This document shows positions 8,494 to 64,000 of a stretch of DNA of 64,000 nucleotides, one piece after another (within the stretch, counting starts at the first letter, position 1; each line of letters starts with the position of its first letter). The translations under genes were made by a program, and so were the position numbers. The stretch is from a plasmid. The notes under the pieces are model-generated. The model searched no databases. It was given only the letters and a program-made list of their open reading frames with translations, and was not told the DNA's origin. Location of the stretch: assembly GCF_054482595.1 (NCBI RefSeq), contig NZ_JBTHVH010000001.1. One strand, 5' to 3'.

Positions 8494-8495
8494 TA

Positions 8496-10703: not shown

Positions 10704-10709
10704 ATTTAT

Positions 10710-19964: not shown

Positions 19965-19968
19965 TGGA

Positions 19969-23543: not shown

Positions 23544-23623
23544 GCAGTTTTTGTCAACTACGAAGACGTGGCCATTACCTACTCCTTTGAAATCATTGGC
23601 GACCATTAGGCCGCCTTTTTTAA

Positions 23624-41459: not shown

Positions 41460-41490
41460 ACAACAAATCCCGCCGATTGGCGGGATTTCT

Positions 41491-44776: not shown

Positions 44777-44788
44777 CCCTGTTACGCC

Positions 44789-45154
44789 TTACTCTGCCTC
44801 TTTAATGTTGGCGGCTATCCATGCCGCCGTGTGCTGTTTAACCTGGTCCAGATCGATGTATGTGCCAACATATTGACTCAAGTCCTGCAACGTACCGATA
44901 AATGCATCGGTGCTCTGATCGACGAATTTATCAGCCAGGAAATCAGCAACCAGTTTTGGCACACCATCATGTACCGAAGGTTGTTTTTCCTCGCCACTAC
45001 TGCCGCCGGACACACCGTACCCCATCTGTTGCATGATCTGGTCAATTTCATCGCTGATATCCAGCAACTCCATGCCACTCGCGGTAGCCGCTTTGGACAT
45101 CAGAGCATCCAACTTATCGCTGAGATCCATTAACTCAATAGCTGATAGTGTCAT
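44789..45154 (-). CDS. ddrA: DdrA-like protein
   Basis: 121-aa ORF between darA and ddrB. Confidence 0.45.
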   Translation of the reverse strand: MTLSAIELMDLSDKLDALMSKAATASGMELLDISDEIDQIMQQMGYGVSGGSSGEEKQPSVHDGVPKLVADFLADKFVDQSTDAFIGTLQDLSQYVGTYIDLDQVKQHTAAWIAANIKEAE

Positions 45155-47070
45155 GCCGCTACCCCCGCTTTCTGGATTGCTACCAACAGATCAGCCAGGT
45201 GGCGAGCTGCGCCGTTAACCAGCTCTTCGTTTTCCTCAAAACGTCCGGCAGCCTGAAGGGCTGCAATCGCTTCCCGGACATTGCCCCGGGCGTTACGGAT
45301 CTCCGCCATGTCAGTGCTTTGTATATCCATCACGTTATTGAGATATTCAATGGCTTTATTAGCCTCTGCATCTGCTTCGCTAACCGTTTCATCAGGCTGT
45401 GCCGGGGCCGGTTCTGGCTGAGTAATCTCACCGACTTCGGCCTGCAATGCATTGATCATGCTCTGCACCATTTTCTCGGTGCCAGCGCCCCCAGGAAACG
45501 CAATATTGGGGAAAGTTTTTTGAAACTGAGTTTTCAGCATTACGCGGAACTCGTCTGGTGAGCTGGTGGCCAGCTCCAGAGCTTTTTGTGCATATTTGCC
45601 AAACGGACCATTAGTAAGTGTCTTCGCCAGGAAGTCGAAAGAATCCTCGCGAGGCAATAACTTCAGGTCGTACTCACTCATTTGCTGATCAGAAAGCGGG
45701 GTATCGTAAGTAGCAATGCCGTAGCGTGCATATTCATAATACGGGTCACCTTCATCAGGGCGCGGCAGAATTGCTTTGTTACCTTCAGGTATTGCGCCAG
45801 GGGCCGCCGGACGCATTTGCAAGGCATATCGATATGCACCTACAGAGACTTCTGGTTCAGGCGAAGAGCTACCGGTATCCTCCGCTGGTTCAGGTTCGAC
45901 GTTTTCCGGTTTATGTTCTTCTGGTTGGACCAGATATTCCGATACATTACCCGCTTTGTAGGCTTTAAACAGCTTGCCGATCGCATCTGCCATGTCCACA
46001 CCCTGTATGGATTTAGCCTTGATCATGTACACGCTGCCATCCGAATCGGTTAACTGGATATACCCTTCGCCGTCCTCAATGAATTGCTTCATTGATGCTC
46101 CATTACTGAGCGTCACTTCCCCGTTCATATGCATACGATTTTTGATACTGGCAAGGCGATCCGTCAGCGCGCGCGAGTGCCCACCAGTCATCCCCGCTGG
46201 ATCAATGGTATCGCGCCCACCTGTGCGATTGAGCTGATCAATCTCCGTCTGCAAACGCTCATTCTCTTCATAAAGAGAATCCGCTTCCGATGCAACAGCG
46301 TTAATTTTCTGCTCCAGATCTACCTTCTGCCCTTCTACCGCTGCCACCTGATCCGCGAGGTCGCTCATGGCATCCTCTTTCTGGTCACTGTCAGCCTGTA
46401 GTTGGGTTATTTCATCAACCAGGGCTTTTTTCTTCTTCTGCGCACGCTGGAATTTTGCCGAGTTTTTCTCTGCAAGGTTGGCAAGTTTCATGGTGACCTG
46501 CGCCAGCGTCATATCACGTCCACTCATCGGAGCAACGGTGTGAGTAACGTCTTTTTTATTCAGTAAGAACTGGAAAGCAACCAGCGTATCGCTATTGGTG
46601 ATCCGGTTTTCCGCTGTCGGGCTATGAAACAGAATGCTGATAGTCTGACCATCACTGAGCGGAATAATGGCTGGCAGGACCGGCAGCCCGTTAACGTTAC
46701 GTGCCCGGCCAATTTCAGCACCGCCGATCGCGCGCGCGCCGCTCTGGGCCACCTCCCCCGTTTTATCACTCCCCGCAGAGATTCCGGTACCATTCAGCTT
46801 CTGGTTCAATGCCCGGACAAATGCCTGCATGGTCCGGTGTAACTGCAAACGAGTAGAACTAATCGCCTCCAGTAAATCCGTAGCACACCAGTGGATCGGC
46901 GTGTCATAGAAGAACGTAGCCTCGATTTCCTCCAGGGTGTTGGATTCCGTCATCAGATAGCGGTCCTCACCGGCCATTAATGCGCGATATTCATCATCAG
47001 TCACTGGCGGGGGAAGCACGTCAAGCCCAGGCTTGATCGTCACCCCTTTATTGATATTTAACTGTTCCAT
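45151..47070 (-). CDS. darA: DarA-like antirestriction/head protein
   Basis: 639-aa ORF; assignment by size and operon context. Confidence 0.55.
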   Translation of the reverse strand: MEQLNINKGVTIKPGLDVLPPPVTDDEYRALMAGEDRYLMTESNTLEEIEATFFYDTPIHWCATDLLEAISSTRLQLHRTMQAFVRALNQKLNGTGISAGSDKTGEVAQSGARAIGGAEIGRARNVNGLPVLPAIIPLSDGQTISILFHSPTAENRITNSDTLVAFQFLLNKKDVTHTVAPMSGRDMTLAQVTMKLANLAEKNSAKFQRAQKKKKALVDEITQLQADSDQKEDAMSDLADQVAAVEGQKVDLEQKINAVASEADSLYEENERLQTEIDQLNRTGGRDTIDPAGMTGGHSRALTDRLASIKNRMHMNGEVTLSNGASMKQFIEDGEGYIQLTDSDGSVYMIKAKSIQGVDMADAIGKLFKAYKAGNVSEYLVQPEEHKPENVEPEPAEDTGSSSPEPEVSVGAYRYALQMRPAAPGAIPEGNKAILPRPDEGDPYYEYARYGIATYDTPLSDQQMSEYDLKLLPREDSFDFLAKTLTNGPFGKYAQKALELATSSPDEFRVMLKTQFQKTFPNIAFPGGAGTEKMVQSMINALQAEVGEITQPEPAPAQPDETVSEADAEANKAIEYLNNVMDIQSTDMAEIRNARGNVREAIAALQAAGRFEENEELVNGAARHLADLLVAIQKAGVAA

Positions 47071-47071
47071 G

Positions 47072-47683
47072 TTAATTTCCTGCTTTCAGTTGCTTAAGAC
47101 GACGTTTGAGTTCGCCATTCCGTGCCTTTTCGTTATTGAGTCGGCCCGTCTCCTTATCCAGCTTCGCCCGCAAATCAGTGATCTGCTGTTGATTGAAAGA
47201 CACCGAATTCTGCGCGGACTTATAAGCGGCAACCACCTGAGCATTCCGCTGTTTTGCTTCTTGCAGGCGCTGAAAGTTGGATTTAACTGCCGGTTTCTTG
47301 TCTACCGGATTGGCAACACGCTTCGCTTTGGCGATCAGTGATTTCTGGAATTTTGCGGAGTTTTTGCGGGCCGCCTGTCCCATGACGGTACCAAGCGTCT
47401 TGATATCCGGCGACTGAGCGTTAGGAATAGCTTTTCCATTCAGTTTCACAGACGATATATCGCCAGTATCGTTTACCTGTATGGCAAGAATTTGTCCGTC
47501 GTTAAGAACCAGCTTTGCGGTTTTAACTTTAACGCCATCTTTCGTTGTTGCGCGGTTGCTGGAGTCAACCTCAATTACCGTAACACCGGTTTTATTGATC
47601 GCCGCGATAAGGGATTTCAGCCCCTTTTCATTAACCTGGTCAAAATCGACCGTTGCATACTTATTTTTCGTCATCTGACACAT
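47072..47683 (-). CDS. hdf: Hdf-like protein (first gene of darA operon)
   Basis: 203-aa ORF immediately upstream of darA. Confidence 0.45.
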   Translation of the reverse strand: MCQMTKNKYATVDFDQVNEKGLKSLIAAINKTGVTVIEVDSSNRATTKDGVKVKTAKLVLNDGQILAIQVNDTGDISSVKLNGKAIPNAQSPDIKTLGTVMGQAARKNSAKFQKSLIAKAKRVANPVDKKPAVKSNFQRLQEAKQRNAQVVAAYKSAQNSVSFNQQQITDLRAKLDKETGRLNNEKARNGELKRRLKQLKAGN

Positions 47684-48104
47684 CCTGTGCGAGATTTATT
47701 ACGTAACTTCTGCGGATTTGCTGAGTAACAGGGAAAATCCGATACAACGGGTTAATGAACGAGTCGCCATGCGTAACCATGATGTTGAAATGCCACAGTC
47801 GCTCTCCTTTACCCATATATTCAGTGGGTATGTACAACCATTCACTGTTTTCGCCCTGTTCAGCCGACGTCAGACAACGTTGTTCACCTTCAATCACTGT
47901 CGTCGGCTTCTGAACATCGCGGATCCAATATCTGACCGTTGCGCCGCGCAAAAACGGGAATTTAGACCGGTACTTGAACGGCACCCGGATGAAACCCGGT
48001 TTAATTTCCACATCACCAAGTTCTAAATGCGTGATGTCCTTGCGTTTTAGCAAATAGCGATCGGCTAAGGCTAACGCAAGAACGCATACACCCCAGCCAA
48101 TCAT
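47661..48104 (-). CDS. lydB: antiholin-like protein
   Basis: 147-aa ORF downstream of holin; synteny-based. Confidence 0.4.
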   Translation of the reverse strand: MIGWGVCVLALALADRYLLKRKDITHLELGDVEIKPGFIRVPFKYRSKFPFLRGATVRYWIRDVQKPTTVIEGEQRCLTSAEQGENSEWLYIPTEYMGKGERLWHFNIMVTHGDSFINPLYRIFPVTQQIRRSYVINLAQDVSDDEK

Positions 48105-48430
48105 TTCCCGCCTCCCTTTTTCACCAAACTTGTAAGAACATTCAGAATGCTATCGATATTCACTCGTTTCATCCCTGAAATCACCTCATGACCGTTATTG
48201 CTGGCTATCGTTACCATTAAGTACGTAATTGATAACTCCCAGCCCTCGTGTTGCCCCAATAGGTACGCCACCGCGCCAGCTGTCACTGCAACAAAGATCT
48301 CCGTAACCAATCCCAACAAATTGCCAGACTGGCGACCGTCTCGGACATCCATCAGGAACGTGCCTATCCCACCAATTACTGAAAGCAGGAGCGCAATAGC
48401 AACTGGAGCTAATTCCTGTGTGTCAAGCAC
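48101..48430 (-). CDS. lydA: holin
   Basis: 109 aa with hydrophobic helices (VAIALLLSVIGGIGTFLM, IFVAVTAGAVAYLLG). Confidence 0.55.
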   Translation of the reverse strand: MLDTQELAPVAIALLLSVIGGIGTFLMDVRDGRQSGNLLGLVTEIFVAVTAGAVAYLLGQHEGWELSITYLMVTIASNNGHEVISGMKRVNIDSILNVLTSLVKKGGGK

Positions 48431-48497
48431 AAGTTCCCTCCTACGTTGTCAGGAGGTAATGGTATGCAAAGTAACTTCTCAACCGGTCATTTGTTGC

Positions 48498-48779
48498 TTA
48501 AGAGGCATTTCTATTGAGGTACGAATCGATAATCCTTTGTAACTTTTCAAGAATGAGCCTGTTATTGATGCTGCAAATAATAGTCACGCAATTCTGAAGA
48601 CTTTCATCCATACCCTTATATTCCGCGAAATACATGCCTATAAAGCCTGCAAGTACGGCAGCAATACACTCGGCCATCAATTGCCTGTATGACGCTTCGT
48701 AACGTTTTTCACGAACCCCATTCAGAAACGAATGCACCCCGCCAAGGATGGAGAGGAGCATTATTGTGAAATCACACAT
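48498..48779 (-). CDS. holin-like small membrane protein
   Basis: 93 aa with two hydrophobic segments. Confidence 0.45.
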   Translation of the reverse strand: MCDFTIMLLSILGGVHSFLNGVREKRYEASYRQLMAECIAAVLAGFIGMYFAEYKGMDESLQNCVTIICSINNRLILEKLQRIIDSYLNRNAS

Positions 48780-48906
48780 AACTATTTCCTTAATAGTGAA
48801 TTAAATATCATTGGGAAACGGTATGTACTTTGTGATTTCCACACATACTGGTTTTTGTTAATTAAAATCCGCAGCTTGCTATAAATAACGATAGTGAGCA
48901 GAAAAT

Positions 48907-49041
48907 ATGCTAATAGGCTATGTACGCGTATCAACAAATGAACAAAACACTGCTTTACAACGAAACGCTCTTGAAAGCGCAGGATGTGAGCTAATTTTTG
49001 AGGACAAGGCGAGTGGAAAAAAGGCTGAACGACCAGAGTGA
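48907..49041 (+). pseudogene. cin: truncated cin-like serine invertase (first ~44 codons only)
   Basis: [44 protein letters not shown]-stop matches Hin/Gin/Cin N-terminus with catalytic Ser; no resolvase core or HTH follows. Confidence 0.7.
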
Positions 49042-49214
49042 AAAAGGCTTTTGATAGGTAAACTCTGGTCGTATGAAAGTTAAATTTGCGTGGGTGCAGC
49101 ATGCGCTCACTCTTGAGGCATGAACGGTAATCATCTGATAACTTGTAGCTCGATTATCCGGACGCACTGGAACCAGTCGATGCTTCCAGCGATCCAGATA
49201 TTTCATTAAATGGA

Positions 49215-49625
49215 CTACGCCTCCGGGAACGCTGGCCAATTGACATCTGGTGCAGTGCTGGTATCCGTTGCGGTCACCGCATCGATATAATCCAGCACAG
49301 CGTTAAGACGGGTGGTTTCAGCCTGCGTAAGATTCCGCCCGGCCTGTAATTTCAGTTGAATAAGACTAATGGAAGCCATTGCGGTATCAATCAGCGACTG
49401 TTTTTTCTGTTCAGCGTCAGCTACCAGTTCATCATGAGAACGTTCCGGAGTGGGTGGCGCAGTAAATCCCCCGTCTGAATACACCCAGCCGATTCCGGGC
49501 TGCTCACTGATATCAGAAATATTAATGAGCTGCTGATTATCCGGCACTGTGAATTCAGCCTCGCCATCCCAGACAATGACATTCACAACCATCCCATTTT
49601 CAATAACTGCATATGATGTATTCAT
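49215..49625 (-). CDS. tail fibre assembly chaperone (U/Tfa-like)
   Basis: 136-aa ORF with TAATG overlap to tail fibre stop. Confidence 0.65.
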   Translation of the reverse strand: MNTSYAVIENGMVVNVIVWDGEAEFTVPDNQQLINISDISEQPGIGWVYSDGGFTAPPTPERSHDELVADAEQKKQSLIDTAMASISLIQLKLQAGRNLTQAETTRLNAVLDYIDAVTATDTSTAPDVNWPAFPEA

Positions 49626-52600
49626 TATGCAAACTCCTCGATAATACAAATCCCTGCAGCGCCTTTCCCGCCCGTCATACTGGTTCCGCTATAACCGGCA
49701 TCGTATGCACCACCGCCGCCCGAACCATATGCCCGACCGATAACGCCACCGCCAGCGCCTGCGCGACCACCGCCCCCCCAGAACGATGATCCTCCTTCAC
49801 CACTGACGCTGATATTTCCGGACTGACCGTCACCTCCATGCCCACCAATAATGCGGACATCACCAGTATTCGGCGCGCCTCCATTACCACCGTTCGTGTT
49901 TGTGACTCCTACTTTCCCGCCGCCTTCACCGCCAGGGGCTATTACCGTTCCGAACGAGCTATCACCGCCCTTGAGGCCGTTCGTCGCACCAACACCGCCG
50001 CCCCCACCTGCGCCGATAGTGACTGGATAACTATTCTGTGTCGGGGTCATTATTGAAATTATTGTCCCACCGGCCCCACCGCCAGCACCGAAAAACGTCT
50101 CGTTATTGGATGTAGCCTGGCAGCCACCACCTCCGCCACCGCCGCCCGTAATTGTGACCCTGATTCGTTTTGTTCCTGGCGTCGGGGTATACGTACCTGA
50201 TGAAGTGAAAACCCGGGTATTCACCAAACGCCCAACATATCCGCTTGAATCGCTCAGGCCAAGGTTAGCAGCAGTTAAAGTAATATTTGCAGAACCATCA
50301 AACTTAACACCGTTGATAGTGCGTGCAGTCTGTAGTTTCGTTGCGGTTGCGGCATTACCGGTAGTGCTCTGATTACCTGCTTTATTCACGCCCGGCAGGT
50401 CGATATTGGCACTACCATCGAATGACACTCCGCCTATTGTGCGTGCTGTTTGCAGTTTTGTTGCAGTTGCAGCATTGCCGGTAGTGCTCTGATTACCTGT
50501 TTTATTCACGCCCGGCAGGTCGATATTGGCACTACCATCAAATGACACCCCGCCGATTGTGCGTACTGTTTGCAGTTTCGTAGCGGTTGCAGCATTGCCG
50601 TTCAAACTACCATTGATGCCGCCAGTAACATTGAGTCCATTACCGATCGTAACAGTACCATTGGCATTGTTAATGATAAGCGGCCTTAAATTATTATAGG
50701 TTCCCAGGCTGTTACCCGAATTGGTCAACATGAAATATGTGTTTGAACCATCGTTTCGGATAAAGAATCCGTAGTTTCCGTAGGCAATGCGCAGACCATT
50801 CGCCGATTTTGAAATGATCTCACCAGTAGCCGTTAAACCGCCGTTGAGATTTCCTCCGGTTATTGGTAATGCGCCGACATCCGTGGCGGTCGGTTTAATG
50901 TGCGAACTGTAAATTACATATACAGTTCCATCTGTCAGGCCTGTTGGTTTATTCGCTGTATAAGATGGTGATGTATGAATCGTTACGCTGGCGTTACTGG
51001 TATAATCCCACTGAATATTAACACGTGTGGTGTAATTACCTATTTCAACATAAACATCATAGGTATCACCGGATGTATTCACCCATGCAAAATTAGTAAA
51101 TCCAACCGATGTCCGTCGCCATAACGCACCAGTAAGACCTTTTGGATTCCCATTTCCCGCACGAAGAACAAGTTCAGATATACCAGCCTGCATAGGGGAG
51201 TTAACATTATATCCAGAACCACCAATCAGGCTTATGTAAACCACGGAACTGGACTGTGGCATGGTTACAGTTGCCAGCTTGAACCATCCAGTACCACCAC
51301 TAAAAGACATTGTTGTTGAGTTGATCGTGCCTATAGACCTTGGAGTTAGCTCAATGTTTTTAGAACCGTCAAACAACACCCCATTTATAGTTCTAGCGGT
51401 TTGTAACTTGGTCGCTGTCGCTGCATTACCGGATGTATTCTGATTACCCGCAACGTTAACACCAGGTAAATTAATATTCGCAGTACCATCAAAGCTAACT
51501 CCGCCGATAGTTCTTGCCGTCTGTAGTTTTGTAGCAGTTGCCGCATTGCCAGTTGTATTCTGATTGCCAGTGGCATTCACACCAGGAATGGAGTCCCTTG
51601 ATGTATATACCTGCGCCCACGCTGACCATGCCGCATCAGTGTGATCTCTTCGGGAGCGAATGAAAACCGGCGCATGTGCACCGCTCGTACCACTCCAGCC
51701 AATAAGCAACTCGCCCTCACCAGCAGCACTCGCACCTTTCATGTGCAATACGTTGCCATACGCGGTCGGGTAGCTATTGTTGTACGCCTCATACATCTGC
51801 AATCCAGTAGAAGCACCTTGTGTTGTATCGGTGAGCGCAGTAACACGCCCTCTGGACGCAATTGTTGGTATCGAAATGTTCGCAGAACCATCAAACTTAA
51901 CACCGTTGATTGTGCGTGCTGTTTGCAGTTTTGTTGCAGTTGCGGCATTACCGGTAGTGCTCTGATTACCTGCTTTATTCACGCCCGGCAGGTCGATATT
52001 GGCACTACCATCAAATGACACCCCGCCGATTGTGCGTACTGTTTGCAGTTTCGTAGCGGTTGCAGCATTGCCGGTAGTGCTCTGATTACCTGCTTTATTC
52101 ACGCCCGGCAGGTCGATATTGGCACTACCATCGAACGACACTCCGCCGATTGTGCGTGCTGTTTGCAGTTTTGTGGCGGTGGATGCATTACCTGTCAAAG
52201 ATCCACTAAGAGCCACGGCACTAAGAGACTTAACACTTACATCCTGACCCCATCCGGAAACAACAACCTGACTCCACGCTGTCCAGTTTCCATTAACAAC
52301 AAAGCGAACGTATATACGTTTTGTGTCGCTGTTAATCAGCGTTTGCATGTTCGCATAATCTGATCCCGTAGTCTTACGAATCGACTCTACACGAACCAAA
52401 AAGTTACCGCTTACGCCGTCAGGCTTATTGGTAATATTTGCACCACCTGCGACAGTTTTGCATTGATAGTATTTAACGGATCCAGCTTCTGTATTAGCAA
52501 TAATCAAGTCGTTTAAATCAATAGCCCGGCCGTCAATGGCTTCCGGCTCGATGGCTCCTGCTATCCCGGCACTGAATGTAGCAGCGGCTGAAAACGCTGT

Positions 52601-54139
52601 CTTACCTTTGAAAGTCTGTTGAGAACTCCAGGTATTAGCTGTGCTCAACAGGGGGATCTTTTCGCCGCTGGTTCCGATTTCTCTTAAACCAAGGTATTGG
52701 ATAACAGCCAGTGTGCTTGTTTTAGCCAGGATATCGCGACCGACTGACGTTAAATCAGTCTGGGAAACAGTGTCTGTACCGGTAAAGTACGGCAATTTAT
52801 TTGCGCCTGTCGCAAGACCAGCAAGCGCGGTTAAAGTTGCATCCAGAGGCTGTTTGCCTGCCAGCGCATTTGTCATTGTTGTCGCAAAGTTCGGGTCATT
52901 GCCCAGTGCTGCTGCAAGCTCATTCAGGGTATCAAGAGCTTCAGGTGATGAGCCGACCAATGCAGAGATAGCAGCTCTTACATAAGCGGTCGTAGCAATC
53001 TGCGTGTTATTCGTACCCTGTGCAGCGGTAGGCGCAGTAGGTATTCCCGTTAATGCAGGACTTGCTAAAGGAGCTTTAAGAGCCAGAGCATTGTTGATAG
53101 TTGTGCTGAAATTCGGGTCGTTATTGATCGCAGCAGCTATTTCTTTAAGCGTATCCAGTGTGCCAGGTGCACCGTTGATAAGTGCCGTTACAGCTGCCTT
53201 AACAAAGGCTGTATTTGCGATCTGCGTGCTGTTTGTACCTTGCGCTGCCGTCGGCGCGGTTGGCGTTCCTGTCAGACTCGGGCTTTCTATTGGCGCTTTG
53301 GTATCAGCCAGCTCTTTTACAGACTTAACGGCTTTAGGGGTAGCCGCCATTGTTTCGCTGTCGCTGTTAGTTGCGCTACTGAGCTGAACTAATCCCTTTT
53401 GTGTTGTGCTTGCATCCTGCGCCGTATACTTGCTTTTAGCCAGATCGTAGGCTTTTTTAACCGCCAGCGAACTTGCAGCGACATCACTTCTGGTACTGGT
53501 TACAGAGTCGGAAATTTCAATGCCTATCGCGAGATCGATGCGGTCGGATACATCTATCATTTCCTTAGTAATAGCAGATACGCCAGCAGGGATATTCACC
53601 GTACAAACAAGCAGTTCCCCATCTCCTAACTGATATGAATCGGTATAGGTTCTGGCAACAAATTCAGCCGCATGAATATGTGACGCGGTATTAACCTGAT
53701 AAGAATCTTCTCCAAGGAGGTATCTTCCCTTCAGCACAATTGCATATTTCTTACCTGCGCTAAGTGCAAGAGAAATATCCTTACGCTGCTGAATAGTTAC
53801 CTGGTAGAATTCACCAATATTCACTGACGCCGCGCCAGCGGTTTTATCACCATCCACTGAGGTGATTAACAGGTTCATCCCACCGCCAGGCTTAGGAAAA
53901 AAACCGGCATAAAATCCAGGGTCAACAATTCCCCTGAATTTTCGGTTTAGCGCGGCTGACAGATATGGTTCGTGGTATTGCACATCAGCCACCAGAGCCA
54001 ACGACTCGGGTGATGGGTAAGTAACCGATGTGACAACTGTAACGTCATTCATCAAGCATATCCTTATGCTGTAGTCGTGTTTATGGCCATAACTGCGGTA
54101 TATGTTTTGCCCACATACAGCGAGTCTTCCTGGACACAA
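49625..54139 (-). CDS. tail fibre protein (S-like), repeat-rich shaft and Gly-rich C-terminal domain
   Basis: 1504 aa; ~38-aa repeats GNQSTTGNAATATKLQTARTIGGVSFDGSANIDLPGVN; followed by Tfa gene. Confidence 0.8.
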   Translation of the reverse strand: MCPGRLAVCGQNIYRSYGHKHDYSIRICLMNDVTVVTSVTYPSPESLALVADVQYHEPYLSAALNRKFRGIVDPGFYAGFFPKPGGGMNLLITSVDGDKTAGAASVNIGEFYQVTIQQRKDISLALSAGKKYAIVLKGRYLLGEDSYQVNTASHIHAAEFVARTYTDSYQLGDGELLVCTVNIPAGVSAITKEMIDVSDRIDLAIGIEISDSVTSTRSDVAASSLAVKKAYDLAKSKYTAQDASTTQKGLVQLSSATNSDSETMAATPKAVKSVKELADTKAPIESPSLTGTPTAPTAAQGTNSTQIANTAFVKAAVTALINGAPGTLDTLKEIAAAINNDPNFSTTINNALALKAPLASPALTGIPTAPTAAQGTNNTQIATTAYVRAAISALVGSSPEALDTLNELAAALGNDPNFATTMTNALAGKQPLDATLTALAGLATGANKLPYFTGTDTVSQTDLTSVGRDILAKTSTLAVIQYLGLREIGTSGEKIPLLSTANTWSSQQTFKGKTAFSAAATFSAGIAGAIEPEAIDGRAIDLNDLIIANTEAGSVKYYQCKTVAGGANITNKPDGVSGNFLVRVESIRKTTGSDYANMQTLINSDTKRIYVRFVVNGNWTAWSQVVVSGWGQDVSVKSLSAVALSGSLTGNASTATKLQTARTIGGVSFDGSANIDLPGVNKAGNQSTTGNAATATKLQTVRTIGGVSFDGSANIDLPGVNKAGNQSTTGNAATATKLQTARTINGVKFDGSANISIPTIASRGRVTALTDTTQGASTGLQMYEAYNNSYPTAYGNVLHMKGASAAGEGELLIGWSGTSGAHAPVFIRSRRDHTDAAWSAWAQVYTSRDSIPGVNATGNQNTTGNAATATKLQTARTIGGVSFDGTANINLPGVNVAGNQNTSGNAATATKLQTARTINGVLFDGSKNIELTPRSIGTINSTTMSFSGGTGWFKLATVTMPQSSSVVYISLIGGSGYNVNSPMQAGISELVLRAGNGNPKGLTGALWRRTSVGFTNFAWVNTSGDTYDVYVEIGNYTTRVNIQWDYTSNASVTIHTSPSYTANKPTGLTDGTVYVIYSSHIKPTATDVGALPITGGNLNGGLTATGEIISKSANGLRIAYGNYGFFIRNDGSNTYFMLTNSGNSLGTYNNLRPLIINNANGTVTIGNGLNVTGGINGSLNGNAATATKLQTVRTIGGVSFDGSANIDLPGVNKTGNQSTTGNAATATKLQTARTIGGVSFDGSANIDLPGVNKAGNQSTTGNAATATKLQTARTINGVKFDGSANITLTAANLGLSDSSGYVGRLVNTRVFTSSGTYTPTPGTKRIRVTITGGGGGGGGCQATSNNETFFGAGGGAGGTIISIMTPTQNSYPVTIGAGGGGGVGATNGLKGGDSSFGTVIAPGGEGGGKVGVTNTNGGNGGAPNTGDVRIIGGHGGDGQSGNISVSGEGGSSFWGGGGRAGAGGGVIGRAYGSGGGGAYDAGYSGTSMTGGKGAAGICIIEEFA
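50240..52200. repeat. three clusters of ~114-bp near-identical direct repeats inside the tail fibre gene
   Basis: gcattaccggtagtgctctgattacctgctttattcacgcccggcaggtcgatattggcactaccatc recurs around 50350, 50470, 51940, 52060, variant around 51420. Confidence 0.6.
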
Positions 54140-54498
54140 ATAATGGCGATTGGCTTGTTCTCGTTATCCAGAACAACCAGAGTGTTGAATGGGTAGTTTT
54201 TCCCTTTCTGCAACTGGCTTTGATCAAGGTCCATTCGGACAGTAATTATCCCGCCTGAGTAGGTTGGGACGAGGTTGATGGTGCAAAATTTACTGGTCAG
54301 TTCTGCCAGATCGAAAGCCTTTGGCAGTTCTCCAATCTCATAAGTGCCATCTCCTTTCTTAGTAACCAGTGAACTGGTACCGAAAACGGCCTTGCTGATT
54401 AAAAATCGAGAGCCTTTGTTAATGGACGATTCAGCGCGCCGCTGATAGTAATAGTCCAACAACTGACTCTTATAGAGGTTTGTTGAGACGTCAGACAT
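54064..54498 (-). CDS. tail fibre-associated structural protein (R-like)
   Basis: 144-aa ORF immediately upstream of tail fibre gene. Confidence 0.4.
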   Translation of the reverse strand: MSDVSTNLYKSQLLDYYYQRRAESSINKGSRFLISKAVFGTSSLVTKKGDGTYEIGELPKAFDLAELTSKFCTINLVPTYSGGIITVRMDLDQSQLQKGKNYPFNTLVVLDNENKPIAIICVQEDSLYVGKTYTAVMAINTTTA

Positions 54499-54576
54499 GA
54501 TTTTCCCTAATCAATGTTGTGAAGCCTCATTGTAAGAAAAGTAACTTGTCACCCCGCCCTGCGGACGGGGTGATTG

Positions 54577-55416
54577 TCAGGCGTCGCTATCCAGCAACAA
54601 ATCATCTGCGCGTGTGCGATCAAACGTAGGTGTCGCTTTCACAATAGTGCCACCAGGCGTTGCGGTGATCGGGGCGCTAATCGACGTAACTCCAGTAAGC
54701 GAAGTTGTATCCGAAGTTTCAAACCAGCAGTACGCTTTTTCGGTATCAGAAATCTCGTTCAAAGTGATCATGTCGGCCTGTTCATTCACAACAACCGACA
54801 AATAGAGCGTAAGCCCATCAAACACTATATGCAGTGGCAGTAGAGGCTTTACGAACTGATTAAACTTTCTGAGAATTTCTTCTGTAATTGCGGACTGATC
54901 TATCGTGCCAGTAATACCCATTGTCCGGGCCAGGTCGTTTATGGGAATACTGATCATCCCTCTGGAAGTCAGAAACATCTCACCGAATGTGCCGCCGGTA
55001 GTTTCCAGTGTGCTTTCTGGTATTAGAACTGTGCCATAGGGATGACGTTCAAGGTCCACCGGTGCATATATCGGATCCCATAAAACAGAAATACCATTAA
55101 ATTCGCGGTAAATTGTCTGGTTTATAGGGCGTTCAGTCCCCTTAAAGTGAATCTCATCAAGCCGCTGTTGTAACAACATCGGAACGGAAGATGAGTTTGA
55201 GGTTCTGATAGTAAAGAACTGGCCAAGTTCATTTGTCCTGGTCTCCAGATCCTCCTTGCTCATGGAAAAAATAGACTTCCGGTTGGTAATTCGCTCCAAC
55301 CATGGGTCAACAAAGGTGTCCATCATTGACTGAACCAAATCAGCCAATGATTTATAGAGCAATGACTTTTGCTTAGCTGATGTAAGCCGATTATTAAACC
55401 AGGAACGTTGCATCAC
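54577..55416 (-). CDS. baseplate protein
   Basis: 279-aa ORF in baseplate/tail-fibre cluster. Confidence 0.45.
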   Translation of the reverse strand: MMQRSWFNNRLTSAKQKSLLYKSLADLVQSMMDTFVDPWLERITNRKSIFSMSKEDLETRTNELGQFFTIRTSNSSSVPMLLQQRLDEIHFKGTERPINQTIYREFNGISVLWDPIYAPVDLERHPYGTVLIPESTLETTGGTFGEMFLTSRGMISIPINDLARTMGITGTIDQSAITEEILRKFNQFVKPLLPLHIVFDGLTLYLSVVVNEQADMITLNEISDTEKAYCWFETSDTTSLTGVTSISAPITATPGGTIVKATPTFDRTRADDLLLDSDA

Positions 55417-56846
55417 TCCTCCTCATACGAAATATTAAAGGTGGAGTTTTCTGTATCCAGATAAACGAAATCGTAAAAGCCGTTGGACTCATTCCACTCG
55501 ACAAATTCCAGATAAAAGTCGCGGAAATAACCCAGCGTTTCGATAAATGCCCAAACGTCTTTTTTCTTGATCAGGATGTACTTGCCGACACCGTTCGGAT
55601 CAAAGAAATTTGAGTCGCGCCCAAATTTTGTTTCCAGTGCCGACTTCAACTCATCAGTCACGTTCTCAATAGTCAGGCTTGCCGATATCCGCCCGGTGAT
55701 GGTTATCTTAAATGGTAGTTTTCTGACCTCTTTATAAGAGAATTTCTTGTTCAGTTCATTCGGTACCTTCTTAAAGGCAGTCAGGATCATTTCTTCAAGC
55801 TCTGACTGGCTTTTATTTGGATGCCATCCTGAAATAAATATCTTATTGATATTCTGAACATTATAAGCACCATCTAATTTCTCTTGCTGGCCTTCGCCCC
55901 ATGCCTTTACCCAGGACAGCCCCGGGATGTTACGAACCAGAAAATACGTATAGTCCCCGCCCCATACGACCTGATCATCATAGGCAAGGTAATATTGTGC
56001 ACGGTTACGTGTGATCTCCGTTGTTTCAGCATCGGTACCTGCGGTTATAGGTGTCGTTGTCTTAACTGAAATCAAATTAGCTAAATTAGCCGCAGAATCG
56101 ACAGGCGTCAGGTTTTGGCCAGCAACCAGGGTTATATCGCCGTTGGTGCACCATACCTTAAGCGTAATTGTCGAACCTTCTGGCGGTATTTGCCCAATTA
56201 GCCCATCGCCGAATCGAACCCCCAACTGCTCGGATGGTTTATAAAACTCAACGTAGACCTGGCTTTTACTACCGGCTAACCGGAACATAGTGCTGGAAGA
56301 CCACTGCGTGGTCTTACCATCGGTCGTCACGAATACTTCCAGCTTATAGCAGACAGCAGTAAGAGCCTTTGATAACACGACTTCCAGAAATTCTTTGGCT
56401 GCCGTAACGGTATATGTCACCTCCTGGATTTCCAACTGTGCCACTTCTACCGTACCGGTGCCGTCAACCAACCTGCATACATCCATAGTCATGTAAGGGT
56501 ACTGGTCGTCAGATATTAAAGGCATGTTTTTGGGGATTACCGCTGGGGCATCTTCACTTGTGGCGGTGATCTCAATCATCCCCGATGACGGTGTTGGCTT
56601 GGTACCAACGTAACTATTCGTTTCTGCCGCTGCCAGGATAGAGGAACGCCGCGTCGCGGTCGATATAAAGCCTTCAGCCAGCGCCGCATCGGCATACTGA
56701 AAGCACCTGTAGACAATCTGGGTAATAAACAATGTCAGCATCGAGACAAATTGAGAGCCGACAAACTTCGACCAGAATGAATCTTTCTCGACAAGCTCTT
56801 CAAACTCTGCACGAATACTGTCTTTAGTCGGTGTTGTTTTACTCAT
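55413..56846 (-). CDS. baseplate J-like protein
   Basis: 477-aa ORF; size and position typical of baseplate J family. Confidence 0.5.
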   Translation of the reverse strand: MSKTTPTKDSIRAEFEELVEKDSFWSKFVGSQFVSMLTLFITQIVYRCFQYADAALAEGFISTATRRSSILAAAETNSYVGTKPTPSSGMIEITATSEDAPAVIPKNMPLISDDQYPYMTMDVCRLVDGTGTVEVAQLEIQEVTYTVTAAKEFLEVVLSKALTAVCYKLEVFVTTDGKTTQWSSSTMFRLAGSKSQVYVEFYKPSEQLGVRFGDGLIGQIPPEGSTITLKVWCTNGDITLVAGQNLTPVDSAANLANLISVKTTTPITAGTDAETTEITRNRAQYYLAYDDQVVWGGDYTYFLVRNIPGLSWVKAWGEGQQEKLDGAYNVQNINKIFISGWHPNKSQSELEEMILTAFKKVPNELNKKFSYKEVRKLPFKITITGRISASLTIENVTDELKSALETKFGRDSNFFDPNGVGKYILIKKKDVWAFIETLGYFRDFYLEFVEWNESNGFYDFVYLDTENSTFNISYEEE

Positions 56847-57202
56847 AGCACCACGTCCTGTGTGATAGTTATATCCCTGATACGAATGGATATTTTCAAC
56901 TTATCAAAAGCATCTCCCTCGGCTACTGACAAGCCAGAAATCGGTATGTCAGGTAAATCTACCGTCAGTTTTTGCAACAGCATTGCCTCAACCGCAATTT
57001 GAACATGCGACAAGTTGGTCGGTTCGTGTTTAAACTGCGGTAAAACATTGCCCCATGACGGATCTCCGTATACCTCACCCTGATAAGTGTTTAGCCACTC
57101 ATATAAACGAGCGCCCCAGGCCTCCTCCTGGGACTCATACGTTTTTACGCCGGATAACTCCAGCGTCAGCAAAGGATCAATTTCGTTATTGTTGGCCATC
57201 AA
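56843..57202 (-). CDS. baseplate wedge (gp25/W-like) protein
   Basis: 119-aa ORF between sit and baseplate J-like gene. Confidence 0.4.
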   Translation of the reverse strand: MMANNNEIDPLLTLELSGVKTYESQEEAWGARLYEWLNTYQGEVYGDPSWGNVLPQFKHEPTNLSHVQIAVEAMLLQKLTVDLPDIPISGLSVAEGDAFDKLKISIRIRDITITQDVVL

Positions 57203-60200
57203 TCAACTCTCGCGTAGTCATTCATCAACGGATCATCAATTGACAGTGGTACCGTGCGCATAACGCCCGGCTGAGGCGTGCTGACCTTTACGACAGTTCC
57301 CTGGCCTTTCGCCGAGTCTTTGGTGTGCTCTTCAATCCTGGCAAGCAATGAGGTCATCTGCGCAAACAGCCGCTTCGTTTCACCATCAAGTGAAACGGTA
57401 TTATCAGCCAACTGCATTGTCGGCTTGGCACCGGAACCGCCAAGGTCACTAATAACCTGCCCGTCTATCTGCATACGACCGGTTGGTTGCTGCAAATCGT
57501 TGGCGGCAGTCGTCACCTTGGACGTGGAGGCTGGTTCAGGCGCATTATTTTTCCGCATCCCCGGCGAGTTGCGGAGTTTATCGAATAGTCCATCAATCCC
57601 CATTTGTGCGCCGAGTTGGTCAAAGTAACTTGAGTTGCTGGCCACCGGACGCGCCTCTTCAACTGGCATCGGAATATCAACATACACATTGCCAGCTGCT
57701 GTTGCGGTCCCCTTCCCTCGTGCACGTTCTTCGAGCGTTCCCTGAACGACTTCCCGACGCATACCCCGGCCATTCATGAATTTGTTGACCAGATCGTTAA
57801 CGCCAACAGCATTGCCGATTTTGTCTACCAGACCGCCTTTCTCAAACGGGCTATCACCAGGGGTAAACGCCAGGCCAGTAGACTGATCGATAACAGCGTT
57901 ATCAGGCAGTGGTCCCCTCACTCCATATTGCGCCCCACCCTGTGCTCCTGCTCCAGGTGTATAGATTTCACCACCTAAATAGCGAGCACGATGAGTATTG
58001 ACCTTGATCGCGTACTCACGGTTTTCTTTCGATAAGTCACCTGTGCCTTTTTTCCACTTATTGATAGTGCCAAACCCAGCGTTATATGCAGTGATGGCCT
58101 CGTTTAAGTCTCCATTGGCTTGCTTCAGATACTTGCTCATGAGAAGAGCCGCAGCTTCTGCCGATTTCACAGGATCAAACGATTCACCTTCAGCTAAGCC
58201 AGTCTCTTCACGAGCAATCCCCGTGAACTGAAACATTCCCAGAGCACCGGTTTGGGATTTTGCATACGGATTACCACCAGATTCAGTTGCAGCAATCGCG
58301 TAAAGAGTGCCTTCTGGAAGACCATATTTATTCTCTAGTTCAGCAAAATACGGAGCCAACTTATCGAGATTTGCCTTACCTTCAGATCCAAGACTTCCGA
58401 CTTTTACATCCAAGCGGCCATTGTTGTAGGTATCCGCAGCTTTCTGAATGTCACTCCTGGTGCCAGTGGTATTAAGCGACGATGATGACGAGCTATTTTG
58501 ACCAATAGCTTTATCAATTTTCTGCAACGCGCTATTGCCCGTTTCTACGGCATTTGCATTGATAATCTGATTCGCAGTTTCTTTAACTGTTTTATTGCTA
58601 TCTTTCGCCGTGTCCAGTGCCGCATTTATCACGCGGGTAACAATATTAGTCTGTTTGGCATCGGATTCAGTTTTAGAATCAGATGTCTCCTGGTGGCTAT
58701 TAACCGGAGCTTTTAACTCTGGAGTGATTTCTTTGGCATTAGCCTCGCTATTAACCGGAGCTTTTAACTGTGGAGCGATTTCTTTCGCATTAGCCTCGCT
58801 ATTAACCGGAGCTTTTAACTCTGGAGTGATTTCTTTCGCATTAGCCTCGCCGATCGGATTGGGTATTTTTGATACAATCATTGCCGCAGGGGTATTTTTA
58901 ACGGCATCAACCGCTGCATCTAATGCTTTACCAGGTAAATTTTTAACCCCATCCCAAATATTACCAGCCGCCTCTTTAATGTGTTTCCCTGGGTTCTTAA
59001 TGAAATCAATTGCACTATCAATTGCATCACTGAAAACCTGTTTCAGGTTATCAACAGTAAAGAAGTCTTTGATGGCATCCAGCTTTTCAAGCAGCTTATT
59101 AGATGTATCGCTAAACCATGCTGAAACAGCATCACCAATCTTTGCTGTGTAATCTTCGAACTTGGTAGAAATGGTGTCGCCAAGGTTAGAAATATATGTT
59201 TCTAAGTTGGTAATCCCACTATCAATGGCCTGGGCAATACTTTCCGTCGAAAATGATTGCAACATATTGCCGATATCCTCAAATCCAAGTGATTTGAGAA
59301 CCTCACCAATGGCGCTGCTAATACCAGATACCAGTCCCCCCATATCAAGAACATTGGCTAACGTATAAGCGGCTTTTTGCTGGAATGATGGATCTTGTCC
59401 TGATTTAAGCCCAAACGCTCGACGTTGCGCTTCTGTATCATTCCAACCGGTTACCGCATCATAAATACCTCCAGCCACTGTGCCGACTAAGGGAATTGCG
59501 CGTAACGCCCCTTTACCAACTGCCTTTAATCCAAGTTTACCTGCTGCCCGGGCAGCCAAATCTCCACCTTCATGGGCGATAGTCTTCTTGCCACCACCGC
59601 GTAGCATTCCTACAAGTTTCTTTGCCCCCAGAGCGCCAAAAGCGAGTGCTCCAGCTTTTTTCAGCATGCCACGCCCCATTAACAACGACGCGACGCCACC
59701 GGCCCCCTTCCCTAACAGGCTAAATAGTTTGGACAGCAAGCCGCCCTTCTTTTTCCCGGTGTTTTTGGCTATCTGATCAAGGGCGCTGAGAATCTTGTCA
59801 TTGCCCTCTTTAATTTCGCTGGTCTGCTCCTGAAGTTCCTGAACTGTCCGTTTTTGGGTGTTAACCTGAACGACATCGGCACTATTTTGCGATTTACGCC
59901 TAAAAAAACCTTTTCTACGGCTGTTATCGTCATTGCCACGAATCACATCGGCAATAGACTTTCTGGCACCATTAAGCGATCCACCAACTTCTTTTGATAT
60001 CCCGCCAAGCTCCTTCCCTGCTGCCCACAATGGACCAGCAACGGCATAACCTAACGCATCAACGGCACGAGTCTCTGAAGGGTTACCTATGCCTTCAGCT
60101 ACTTTTGACAGTTTTTTTAATAAACCTGATTCAGCATTTAGACGCTCATCATCCTCTTTACGCCTGGCCTTTTCAGCACGTTCAGCACGGGCATCTTCCG

Positions 60201-60990
60201 CTGCGGCCTTACTCCCTGACTTTCCAATAAAACGACCACGCGCATCGCGTTGGTTTTGGCTTTTTTGCGCACCGCCTTTTTGATCGAACATTTCGCGAGC
60301 GTGTTCGGCTGCTTCGGTCCGTTGTGCCTTTATATCCTCTGGTATAGCCTTCCTGCGTCGTTTTTTACCCTTTGGTGTAGTTGATTTGGCCTGCTGTTCC
60401 TGTTGAGCAATGCCCTCCTGAACTACACGAGAAACGTCCCCTAAATTAAGCCGTTTCATTGCGTCAACAATAGGGTCTACTGATGGCGCATTGGCCACAA
60501 AGTCTGGCCGGGAATTTTCGATTGTTCGATTTAATGCCGACACACTGCGAGATACTGGGTCAACCGTTGCAACGCGTTCCCCTTTCAAATCACGAGCGAG
60601 TTTAACCGTTTCTAACCGCTGTGCTTTAACATCCTCTGTTATTGCCTCTCTTCGTCTATTTGGGGGATTGTGCGCTGTTGGTGCAGCCTGCTGTGCACGG
60701 TTAGTGACTTTGTCCTCCCGTATACGAGAAACGTCCCCTAAATTAAGCCGTTTTATTGCGTCAACAATAGGGTCCACTGATGGCGCATTGGTCACAAAGT
60801 CAGGACGTGAATTTTCGATTGTGCGATTTAATGCCGACACACTGCGAGAGACAGGATCAACAGTTGCAACTCGTTCCCCTTTCAAATCTTCAACAGCTTC
60901 CCGAATACCTGCAAGCTCTTCCAGCTCTTTCGCGCTGGCGGTTTCAACTGTCCTTATAACATCGTCAATATTGGCGTTTTTTCTTTCCAT
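57199..60990 (-). CDS. sit: injection transglycosylase / tape-measure-like protein with SLT domain
   Basis: 1263 aa; lytic transglycosylase motif YAIAATESGGNPYAKSQTGALGMFQFT; internal tandem repeats. Confidence 0.7.
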   Translation of the reverse strand: MERKNANIDDVIRTVETASAKELEELAGIREAVEDLKGERVATVDPVSRSVSALNRTIENSRPDFVTNAPSVDPIVDAIKRLNLGDVSRIREDKVTNRAQQAAPTAHNPPNRRREAITEDVKAQRLETVKLARDLKGERVATVDPVSRSVSALNRTIENSRPDFVANAPSVDPIVDAMKRLNLGDVSRVVQEGIAQQEQQAKSTTPKGKKRRRKAIPEDIKAQRTEAAEHAREMFDQKGGAQKSQNQRDARGRFIGKSGSKAAAEDARAERAEKARRKEDDERLNAESGLLKKLSKVAEGIGNPSETRAVDALGYAVAGPLWAAGKELGGISKEVGGSLNGARKSIADVIRGNDDNSRRKGFFRRKSQNSADVVQVNTQKRTVQELQEQTSEIKEGNDKILSALDQIAKNTGKKKGGLLSKLFSLLGKGAGGVASLLMGRGMLKKAGALAFGALGAKKLVGMLRGGGKKTIAHEGGDLAARAAGKLGLKAVGKGALRAIPLVGTVAGGIYDAVTGWNDTEAQRRAFGLKSGQDPSFQQKAAYTLANVLDMGGLVSGISSAIGEVLKSLGFEDIGNMLQSFSTESIAQAIDSGITNLETYISNLGDTISTKFEDYTAKIGDAVSAWFSDTSNKLLEKLDAIKDFFTVDNLKQVFSDAIDSAIDFIKNPGKHIKEAAGNIWDGVKNLPGKALDAAVDAVKNTPAAMIVSKIPNPIGEANAKEITPELKAPVNSEANAKEIAPQLKAPVNSEANAKEITPELKAPVNSHQETSDSKTESDAKQTNIVTRVINAALDTAKDSNKTVKETANQIINANAVETGNSALQKIDKAIGQNSSSSSSLNTTGTRSDIQKAADTYNNGRLDVKVGSLGSEGKANLDKLAPYFAELENKYGLPEGTLYAIAATESGGNPYAKSQTGALGMFQFTGIAREETGLAEGESFDPVKSAEAAALLMSKYLKQANGDLNEAITAYNAGFGTINKWKKGTGDLSKENREYAIKVNTHRARYLGGEIYTPGAGAQGGAQYGVRGPLPDNAVIDQSTGLAFTPGDSPFEKGGLVDKIGNAVGVNDLVNKFMNGRGMRREVVQGTLEERARGKGTATAAGNVYVDIPMPVEEARPVASNSSYFDQLGAQMGIDGLFDKLRNSPGMRKNNAPEPASTSKVTTAANDLQQPTGRMQIDGQVISDLGGSGAKPTMQLADNTVSLDGETKRLFAQMTSLLARIEEHTKDSAKGQGTVVKVSTPQPGVMRTVPLSIDDPLMNDYARVD

Positions 60991-61071
60991 GATCTTATCG
61001 CCTACCGTTTCGGTTTAAGTTTTTCTTCCAGTTTCTCCAACAGGAAAAACGCATAGGATTCAGTAAGCCTT

Positions 61072-61953
61072 TCAGCGTCCTGAATCGGTATACCCCCATA
61101 CAAAACCAGGTTGGACACTAAGGTCTGATAGCTTTTCAATCCCCACCTGTGGAATGAAGTCGGTAGCCCGAAAGGGCACCCACAGACGGGTATATGCACC
61201 CTCTGTGGACTCCTTTTTATCCTGATTTGGGCATTTATGCGGCGGGAGACGAAGACGCATTTCACCTTTATCGATGTAGCACGGTAAACCATGTTCGAGC
61301 TTTTCATGAGCCAGTCGGATGTGTGCCGCCAGCTTCATAAATTCAGTATCAATGGCCATCCGTTTAATCGTTTCATAACGACGCTCAGCCTGATCTTCAC
61401 GAGTACCGCTAACATCGTTATAAAGCTCACACTGATAAGCGAATTCCCAAAAACGCAAATCAACGATCGCTTCTTTGAATTCCGCGTCGTCTTCAGCTGG
61501 CAATGCTGCACGGCGCATCTCCAGCATTTCCATTGCCCAACCATCAAGCGGCACGATACGCCATTGATAAGGTACTCCCTCTACAGACACCTCAATATCG
61601 TCAATGAAAGGTTCCACTTCCAGGACCTGGATATCTTCAGCCAGAGCATTCATATCGCAATCGTAATAATGCTCTTTACCGCAATGTTTACAGGTGTAGG
61701 TGAATGTCTCGACCGGTGTTTCACGGGAGCCGGTAAATATCCACCATAACGCGGTAATCCGGTCCTGCGCCGTCCATGTCAGGGGATCATGTTTCGCGGG
61801 TTCAGCCAGCAAGGCTTTTAAATACGCCGTTGTCTGTTGTTCTTGTTCCTCCGGTGTTATCGAGTTGAAACGCATCGCATCAGCAATATTTGGCTGACGG
61901 AACTGGATCAATTCAGTTGGCCGCGATGGTAGCGGGAAAAGGGGTAAAAGCAT
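61072..61953 (-). CDS. hypothetical tail-module protein (293 aa), full-length copy
   Basis: ORF downstream of tail-tube-like gene. Confidence 0.5.
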   Translation of the reverse strand: MLLPLFPLPSRPTELIQFRQPNIADAMRFNSITPEEQEQQTTAYLKALLAEPAKHDPLTWTAQDRITALWWIFTGSRETPVETFTYTCKHCGKEHYYDCDMNALAEDIQVLEVEPFIDDIEVSVEGVPYQWRIVPLDGWAMEMLEMRRAALPAEDDAEFKEAIVDLRFWEFAYQCELYNDVSGTREDQAERRYETIKRMAIDTEFMKLAAHIRLAHEKLEHGLPCYIDKGEMRLRLPPHKCPNQDKKESTEGAYTRLWVPFRATDFIPQVGIEKLSDLSVQPGFVWGYTDSGR

Positions 61954-61967
61954 CCTTGCTCCTTAAT

Positions 61968-62579
61968 TCAAAGAGAAAAACTAAAGCCCAGAAGGGAAGC
62001 CAAAGAACTTGAGGATTGGTTAAACGTGCTGTGCAATGCGAAGGTCATTGGGAATGACTTAAATTCCGTAACCTGATCCCGCGCATAGGTGACATCGCCG
62101 GTAGTGACCGGGAATACCGTCATCTCATTTTCCAGTTTGGTTAAGCCGGAAGACAGCAACCGATAAATACGCACATTGAGCAAATATTTAGACGGTATAT
62201 TCCCGGTACCGTCCGGATTGATCACCCGACTTTTTGCCGTCTTAAACCAGTCTAAAACGAGGCCATCAACGGTATCCCTGACCATCATTGTTATCTGCCC
62301 AGGCGAACGCTCCGTTGGTTGAAGGATATTCCCTCCGCCGATTTTAATCGTTTCATATTCGATGCTGTAATCGTGGTAGGTAATGTCTTTGGCAAAGAAG
62401 TCTGCCCCCTCCAGTCCATCAACTTCGACAGAGAACTGCCATCCTTGCGCGAACAGCATTTTGTTCATGATGATTGACGTCAGCTTACCAACTTCCCGCT
62501 CACCAACGCCGGAGCCAAATAATGTCGTCGTTAATGCCGAAGATACATAAGACTTTACTGAAGCAACATTAAGCCCCAT
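61968..62579 (-). CDS. tail tube-like protein (203 aa), copy 1
   Basis: ORF with GAGGGGG SD. Confidence 0.5.
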   Translation of the reverse strand: MGLNVASVKSYVSSALTTTLFGSGVGEREVGKLTSIIMNKMLFAQGWQFSVEVDGLEGADFFAKDITYHDYSIEYETIKIGGGNILQPTERSPGQITMMVRDTVDGLVLDWFKTAKSRVINPDGTGNIPSKYLLNVRIYRLLSSGLTKLENEMTVFPVTTGDVTYARDQVTEFKSFPMTFALHSTFNQSSSSLASLLGFSFSL

Positions 62580-62589
62580 ATCAGCCCCC

Positions 62590-63294
62590 TCACTTCAACA
62601 TGGATGAGAAAAGAACAATCCCCGGGATAATTGCCCTTGTTGCGCTCATTTTCTCTTCCATGTGTGCCGCCAGCTTCATAAATTCAGTATCAATGGCCAT
62701 CCGTTTAATCGTTTCATAACGACGCTCAGCCTGATCTTCACGAGTACCGCTAACATCGTTATAAAGCTCACACTGATAAGCGAATTCCCAAAAACGCAAA
62801 TCAACGATCGCTTCTTTGAATTCCGCGTCGTCTTCAGCTGGCAATGCTGCACGGCGCATCTCCAGCATTTCCATTGCCCAACCATCAAGCGGCACGATAC
62901 GCCATTGATAAGGTACTCCCTCTACAGACACCTCAATATCGTCAATGAAAGGTTCCACTTCCAGGACCTGGATATCTTCAGCCAGAGCATTCATATCGCA
63001 ATCGTAATAATGCTCTTTACCGCAATGTTTACAGGTGTAGGTGAATGTCTCGACCGGTGTTTCACGGGAGCCGGTAAATATCCACCATAACGCGGTAATC
63101 CGGTCCTGCGCCGTCCATGTCAGGGGATCATGTTTCGCGGGTTCAGCCAGCAAGGCTTTTAAATACGCCGTTGTCTGTTGTTCTTGTTCCTCCGGTGTTA
63201 TCGAGTTGAAACGCATCGCATCAGCAATATTTGGCTGACGGAACTGGATCAATTCAGTTGGCCGCGATGGTAGCGGGAAAAGGGGTAAAAGCAT
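62590..63294 (-). pseudogene. chimeric truncated duplicate of 61072..61953 gene created at duplication junction
   Basis: First ~212 codons identical to the 293-aa gene, then 22 unrelated codons read from the repeat-unit end. Confidence 0.5.
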
Positions 63295-63308
63295 CCTTGC
63301 TCCTTAAT

Positions 63309-63920
63309 TCAAAGAGAAAAACTAAAGCCCAGAAGGGAAGCCAAAGAACTTGAGGATTGGTTAAACGTGCTGTGCAATGCGAAGGTCATTGGGAATGACT
63401 TAAATTCCGTAACCTGATCCCGCGCATAGGTGACATCGCCGGTAGTGACCGGGAATACCGTCATCTCATTTTCCAGTTTGGTTAAGCCGGAAGACAGCAA
63501 CCGATAAATACGCACATTGAGCAAATATTTAGACGGTATATTCCCGGTACCGTCCGGATTGATCACCCGACTTTTTGCCGTCTTAAACCAGTCTAAAACG
63601 AGGCCATCAACGGTATCCCTGACCATCATTGTTATCTGCCCAGGCGAACGCTCCGTTGGTTGAAGGATATTCCCTCCGCCGATTTTAATCGTTTCATATT
63701 CGATGCTGTAATCGTGGTAGGTAATGTCTTTGGCAAAGAAGTCTGCCCCCTCCAGTCCATCAACTTCGACAGAGAACTGCCATCCTTGCGCGAACAGCAT
63801 TTTGTTCATGATGATTGACGTCAGCTTACCAACTTCCCGCTCACCAACGCCGGAGCCAAATAATGTCGTCGTTAATGCCGAAGATACATAAGACTTTACT
63901 GAAGCAACATTAAGCCCCAT
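63309..63920 (-). CDS. tail tube-like protein (203 aa), copy 2
   Basis: Identical to 61968..62579. Confidence 0.5.
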   Translation of the reverse strand: MGLNVASVKSYVSSALTTTLFGSGVGEREVGKLTSIIMNKMLFAQGWQFSVEVDGLEGADFFAKDITYHDYSIEYETIKIGGGNILQPTERSPGQITMMVRDTVDGLVLDWFKTAKSRVINPDGTGNIPSKYLLNVRIYRLLSSGLTKLENEMTVFPVTTGDVTYARDQVTEFKSFPMTFALHSTFNQSSSSLASLLGFSFSL

Positions 63921-64000
63921 ATCAGCCCCCTCACTTCAACATGGATGAGAAAAGAACAATCCCCGGGATAATTGCCCTTGTTGCGCTCATTTTCTCTTCC

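Follow-up and report, generated by a model that had tools for sequence, protein, structure and literature searches.

The window, a 64,000-nt stretch of plasmid DNA, ends in two identical, adjacent copies of a 1341-nt segment that carries the tail tube gene of a P1-type phage-plasmid. The second of these, copy 2 (62660..64000), is probably not biological but a terminal re-copy that arose in contig-end handling, in assembly, or in construction of the window itself. We infer a technical cause as the most likely one from four observations: the perfect identity of the copies, the absence of their junction from the public sequences searched, the single copy present in a near-clonal relative, and the coincidence of the end of the repeat with the edge of the window.

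Extent, junction and gene content of the repeat

Direct comparison within the window revealed that 61319..62659 and 62660..64000 agree at 1341 of 1341 nucleotides, with 0 mismatches. A sequence-only reading of this DNA had reported that the two intervals appeared identical, and this is fully borne out. An exact repeat of 1341 nt rules out a chance origin. The pair (repeat family D2 of the window) is arranged head to tail with a period of 1341 and amounts to exactly 2.000 units (2682 nt), with no N's. To the left, the identity stops at once ('g' at 61318 versus 'c' at 62659); at the other end, the last base of copy 2 is the last base of the window, a 'c' at 64000. Copy 1 (61319..62659) lies in the usual P1 context, its left flank running into the remainder of pmgB and then into sit, and by alignment it is collinear with single-copy relatives as far as 62660. 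Copy 2 reads the same interval again: window 62660..64000 and 61320..62660 align to one and the same interval of contig DAODFQ010000014.1 (L017) and of a second close relative, L006. The left unique flank of the repeat is present; the right flank, which is the rest of pmgC, is absent, and the sequence stops at the end of copy 2.

At the copy-copy junction (62659..62660) the window reads ...ttctcttcc followed by atgtgtgccgcc..., whereas single-copy relatives at the same point read ...ttctcttcc followed by agatccagctt.... Spelled on either side of the breakpoint, the junction is ...TTCTCTTCC joined to ATGTGTGCCGCC..., and a further form of the spanning sequence is TGCGCTCATTTTCTCTTCC joined to ATGTGTGCCGCCAGCTTCATA. 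In register, microhomology at the junction is at most 1 bp ('a'), which makes a microhomology-mediated origin doubtful. The longest word common to the surroundings of the two breakpoints is 8 nt. The 8-mer CCAGCTTC occurs near both breakpoints but out of register, and it therefore cannot have generated the junction.

Read along the plus strand, the unit comprises the first 635 nt of the pmgB open reading frame (codons 1-211 and 2 further nt), then tub, set off by spacers of 14 nt on the pmgB side and 10 nt on the other, and finally the terminal 70 nt of pmgC. All of it lies within the late sit operon and has no promoter of its own. The genes in and around it are all on the minus strand. Intact pmgB (61072..61953; PHROG 1854 (phrog_1854), E=2e-154) encodes 293 aa and carries the substitution P153A. 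The first copy of tub (61968..62579) encodes a 203-aa tail tube protein, as assigned from PHROG 1842 (phrog_1842; E=1e-106) and the P1 annotation, and this Tub is identical to the Tub of L003, L006 and L008. From the list of open reading frames and the exact identity of the copies, the second tub (63309..63920) is the same gene again. The window thus does contain, as had been noted, two identical 203-aa tail-tube-like genes, and they can now be named as P1 tub. Between them, a 234-aa open reading frame (62590..63294) fuses residues 1-211 of PmgB in frame, through one junction codon (Met), to the C-terminal 22 residues of PmgC. Its earlier description as a chimeric, truncated copy of the neighbouring 293-aa gene agrees with our PHROGs comparison, in which the neighbour is PmgB and the 234-aa frame matches positions 1-213 only of the PmgB profile. 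The 70-nt end of pmgC (22 codons, the stop codon, and 1 nt) is found at 62590..62659 in copy 1 and at 63931..64000 in copy 2. In relatives pmgC encodes 188 aa; its other 497 nt fall outside the visible window, and if the source record were to run on past 64000, pmgC would be expected to continue as AGATCCAGCTT.... Tub, PmgB, and PmgC each match their own PHROG families over the full length.

Downstream in the same late operon, and outside the repeat, lies sit (57199..60990, minus strand), which encodes a 1263-aa tape measure protein and transglycosylase. Previous work reports that pmgB and pmgC are essential, and describes PmgB as a tail-morphogenesis protein and putative tape-measure chaperone, PmgC as a head-tail adaptor, Sit as the tape measure, and Tub as one of two tail-tube candidates (PMC9024508).

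Single-copy relatives and searches of public sequences

The closest relative of the window is NCBI contig DAODFQ010000014.1 (96,884 bp), which was reached via the exact 1475-aa tail fibre protein. It differs from window 39625..62660 by 1 SNP in 23,036 nt (99.996% identity over 23 kb), holds the unit in single copy, and continues as ...TTCTCTTCCA followed by GATCCAGCTTTCGC... into a full pmgC. The same arrangement was observed in more distant elements. The P1 late operon LPsit (NC_005856 46576..40988; 98.2% identity) and pEC18-3 (NZ_CP060916.1, IncY; 99.6% identity) share gene order and orientation with the window, and they, like DAODFQ010000014.1, carry the 1341-nt interval once and then proceed into pmgC; in the window, by contrast, the interval appears twice and the sequence then stops. 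All of the contigs with an identical 1263-aa Sit (10/10) also carry pmgC(188)-tub(203)-pmgB(293)-sit once.

The sole difference from the near-clone, at 61497 (62838 in copy 2), is private to the window and non-synonymous, producing PmgB P153A. The 31-mer of this SNP was absent from three contig collections. The exact PmgB-P153A protein was present in only two Logan contigs, both single copy and 98.9% identical to the window in DNA, and the exact Dmt methylase of the window returned no record. Because the private SNP is in both copies, there is zero divergence between them. A random SNP has a 5.8% chance of landing within the duplicated unit, and we found no explanation for the placement of P153A.

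For searches of the junction, we used a 201-nt query centred on the copy-copy boundary. A single match spanning the junction was found in 0 of 499 records of P1-like replicons in complete E. coli genomes and in 0 of 504 PLSDB plasmids, the two halves always matching apart, and none of 20 phage records showed the duplication, all being single copy. An exact match to a junction 40-mer was likewise absent from IMG/VR (viral_contigs), GTDB representative genomes (genome_contigs), and JGI metagenomes (metagenome_contigs). Exact look-up of the chimeric 234-aa protein, in either the A153 or the common P153 form, yielded no entry in an index of 153 billion genes. This last absence weighs little as evidence against a genuine duplication, since a short-read de Bruijn assembly (e.g. 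Logan) would not pass such a repeat and would miss the chimera. With the junction query, the junction 40-mer, and the chimera look-ups all empty, natural polymorphism was rejected for all the public data searched.

Surplus copies of the unit do occur in other records. Among 499 complete-genome records, the 1341-nt unit was found in 513 places (14 surplus), with a median of 1 and a maximum of 2 per genome. We inspected two of the two-place records. In NZ_CP016549.1 (L018-L020), the stretch 86456-126046 is a second version of 1-39615 (99.5-99.7% identity), in which the alignment shows 119 gap openings and the C-segment is flipped; in NZ_CP029117.1 (L021-L023), the first ~24 kb appear again at ~97-120.8 kb with many frameshifted CDS. 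Both are untrimmed long-read end overlaps (24-39 kb) rather than local duplications, and the true sizes are about 86.5 kb for NZ_CP016549.1 and about 97 kb for NZ_CP029117.1. The redundancy of the tub region in these two records came from assembly, not biology, and they were rejected as a natural precedent for a local tub duplication. They resemble the window in that redundancy at a sequence end mimics duplicated phage genes. They differ from it in that the overlaps are 24-39 kb, lie one genome length from their twin, and are rich in indels, whereas the repeat in the window is 1341 nt, adjacent to its twin, and error-free.

Origin of the second copy

For an independently placed window, the probability of ending on the last base of a real duplication is of the order of 1 in 64,000. 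With 2.000 units ending on base 64000, it follows that there is a causal link between the repeat and the sequence end. This pattern is explained, with no coincidence needed, if the final n bases were copied verbatim a second time. Under this explanation, the late operon pmgC-tub-pmgB-sit on the minus strand would be single copy in the true molecule, the true sequence from 62660 would run through the remaining 497 nt of pmgC, and the last 1341 bases would be a verbatim re-copy of the 1341 before them, added at the sequence end. Such a re-copy could have arisen by padding of the tail, or by the joining of overlapping pieces that were left unmerged, during assembly, contig-end handling, or window construction. 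The edge coincidence, the absent junction and chimera, the single-copy near-clone and contigs with identical Sit, microhomology of no more than 1 bp, the zero divergence of the copies, and the assembly origin of the surplus in the two records inspected all argue for an artefact. The sequence-only reading had proposed a very recent duplication, with a contig-end or assembly artefact as its alternative. The former finds no independent support, as every related sequence examined is single copy, including the near-clone; the latter fits better, given the edge coincidence, the exact 2.000 copies, and a junction with at most 1 bp of microhomology.

Several observations stand against an artefact. The sequence as it is allows a real duplication, in that each gene is intact in at least one copy (if pmgC follows) and the fusion is in frame. 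P1 headful packaging easily tolerates an additional 1.3 kb. In addition, none of the artefacts that are commonly met with yields a repeat of this pattern. A false loop in the assembly graph via a shared k-mer is impossible, as no word shared by the breakpoints exceeds 8 nt. Both possible continuations after copy 2 begin with 'a', and, if assemblers behave as we would expect, a de Bruijn contig ending at the branch of such a loop should hold this shared 'a' and measure 2x1341+1 nt; the observed repeat measures 2682 nt and its last base is 'c', which argues, weakly, against this route.

A genuine and very recent 1341-bp tandem duplication in one P1-like lineage, with the contig or assembler stopping at the end of copy 2, is unlikely. 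It would have required an illegitimate, essentially homology-free joining of pmgB codon 212 to a site 70 nt short of the pmgC end, and the resulting order of transcription would be pmgC - tub - pmgB(1-211)::pmgC(last 22 aa) - tub - pmgB - sit. The form of the repeat is in keeping with such an event: the copies are head to tail, the junction is clean, and the essential genes are all intact. As in spontaneous tandem segmental duplications of bacteria and phages, identical head-to-tail copies meet at a novel junction that holds a chimeric gene. It is also conceivable that an assembler faced with an unresolvable loop halted after its second pass, and a duplication younger than the private SNP would account for its presence in both copies. 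The window departs from spontaneous tandem duplications, however, in that its junction is unsupported, has no more than 1 bp of microhomology, and is followed by no downstream flank, the repeat ending at the sequence end. When duplications arise spontaneously and without RecA in E. coli, the microhomology at their junctions is usually, though not obligatorily, longer, and exact 1.3-kb direct repeats are quickly lost by homologous recombination. A genuine duplication is further opposed by the lack of any independent occurrence of its junction in the public sequences searched, by the single copy in the near-clone, by the exact match of repeat end and window edge, and by the extra base that a branch-ended contig would be expected to hold.

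Amplification of the tub unit to three or more copies that run on past the window, perhaps driven by selection or confined to a sub-population, is very improbable. Further copies would be compatible with an identity that reaches the very last base, but a cut of the window exactly at a unit boundary then needs a chance of about 1 in 1341. Moreover, the relatives show no amplification, the surplus in the two inspected cases being assembly overlap, the unit lacks its own promoter, and it offers no evident selective benefit.

Least probable of all is an effect of circularity or of a terminal repeat, whether wrap-around of the contig, an untrimmed overlap of its start and end, or a direct terminal repeat (DTR) of the phage: untrimmed end overlaps are common in the public records of P1-like plasmids, but the first 20-50 bases of the window occur once only, so that its tail does not wrap to its start, an overlap or DTR is expected one genome length (~90 kb) away rather than adjacent, and a fit would require the wrapped stretch to be, by chance, exactly as long as the overlap. 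P1, which packages its DNA by the headful starting at pac, lacks a fixed terminal repeat in the vicinity of tub.

The P1-type element and the meaning of the repeat

As judged from its sequence, the window is an ordinary P1-type (Punavirus) phage-plasmid. Its last 5 kb match P1, P7, RCS47, SJ46, and others at 97-98%, and the order pmgC-tub-pmgB-sit, all on the minus strand, is that of P1, in which, according to the annotation, the operon is driven by LPsit, a late promoter located upstream of pmgC. Collinearity with pEC18-3 extends over the entire window, from record position 72691 down to 15420, and pacA and pacB are found at about 15.6-18.3 kb in the window. The window begins inside a VRR-NUC gene and relatives extend to the left of it, indicating that the start is arbitrary and nothing special.

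Other repeats and variable segments were observed along the window. Sit has 1263 aa here, whereas its P1 counterpart has 1140 aa and that of NZ_CP029117.1 has 1231 aa, and sit contains repeats (58696-58850, 60380-60888): a tandem array of 3 x 51 nt, and a 212-nt segment present twice, 297 nt apart, with 84% identity. This suggests that variation in the length of the tail ruler among P1-like elements is driven by repeats. The 1475-aa tail-fibre protein S (49625-54052, minus strand) contains two clusters of 120-nt repeats (40 aa, '...GNAATATKLQTARTIGGVSFDGSANIDLPGVN...'), at 50162-50701 and 51353-52294. Differences between the window and L006 are concentrated in these S-gene repeats (50123, 51811-51950), and this clustering suggests recombination among them.

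Two pairs of inverted repeats, 18655-19104 with 24418-24867 (450 nt, 94%) and 19534-19975 with 23613-24054 (442 nt, 87%), correspond to two ant-like antirepressor genes (18846-19964, plus strand, and 23624-24676, minus strand), which face one another across c1 (19997-20848, minus strand) and a cre-like integrase gene (22002-23033, plus strand). The 3.6-5.3-kb segment between the ant-like arms could be invertible by homologous recombination. The window has both ant-like genes; in pEC18-3 they are represented by just a fragment of one. Two regions, 5436-11367 and 40095-41459, are accessory cargo when compared with pEC18-3 or P1. The first, a block often seen in other P1-like plasmids (213 index blocks), encodes a PAPS-reductase-like protein (6178-7056), an Ead/Ea22-like protein, and a DUF551 protein (9007-9915); the second contains a HipA-family (YjjJ-like) toxin gene.

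The repeat at the end of the window matters first for quality control. Taken at face value, its annotation gives a well-known phage a second tail-tube gene and a novel PmgB-PmgC fusion protein, and the evidence says that neither the second tub nor the fusion is to be believed without reads. The comparison also indicates that some 'complete' public records of P1-like plasmids contain large overlaps left untrimmed at their ends and so look bigger and richer in genes than the plasmids are. If the duplication were true, the tail-tube gene would be doubled and a PmgB(1-211)::PmgC(C-terminal 22 aa) chimera created, and this may be the start of an amplification; even then, for a P1-like plasmid, a tandem duplication that is young, neutral and 1.3 kb in size would be a routine, transient event.
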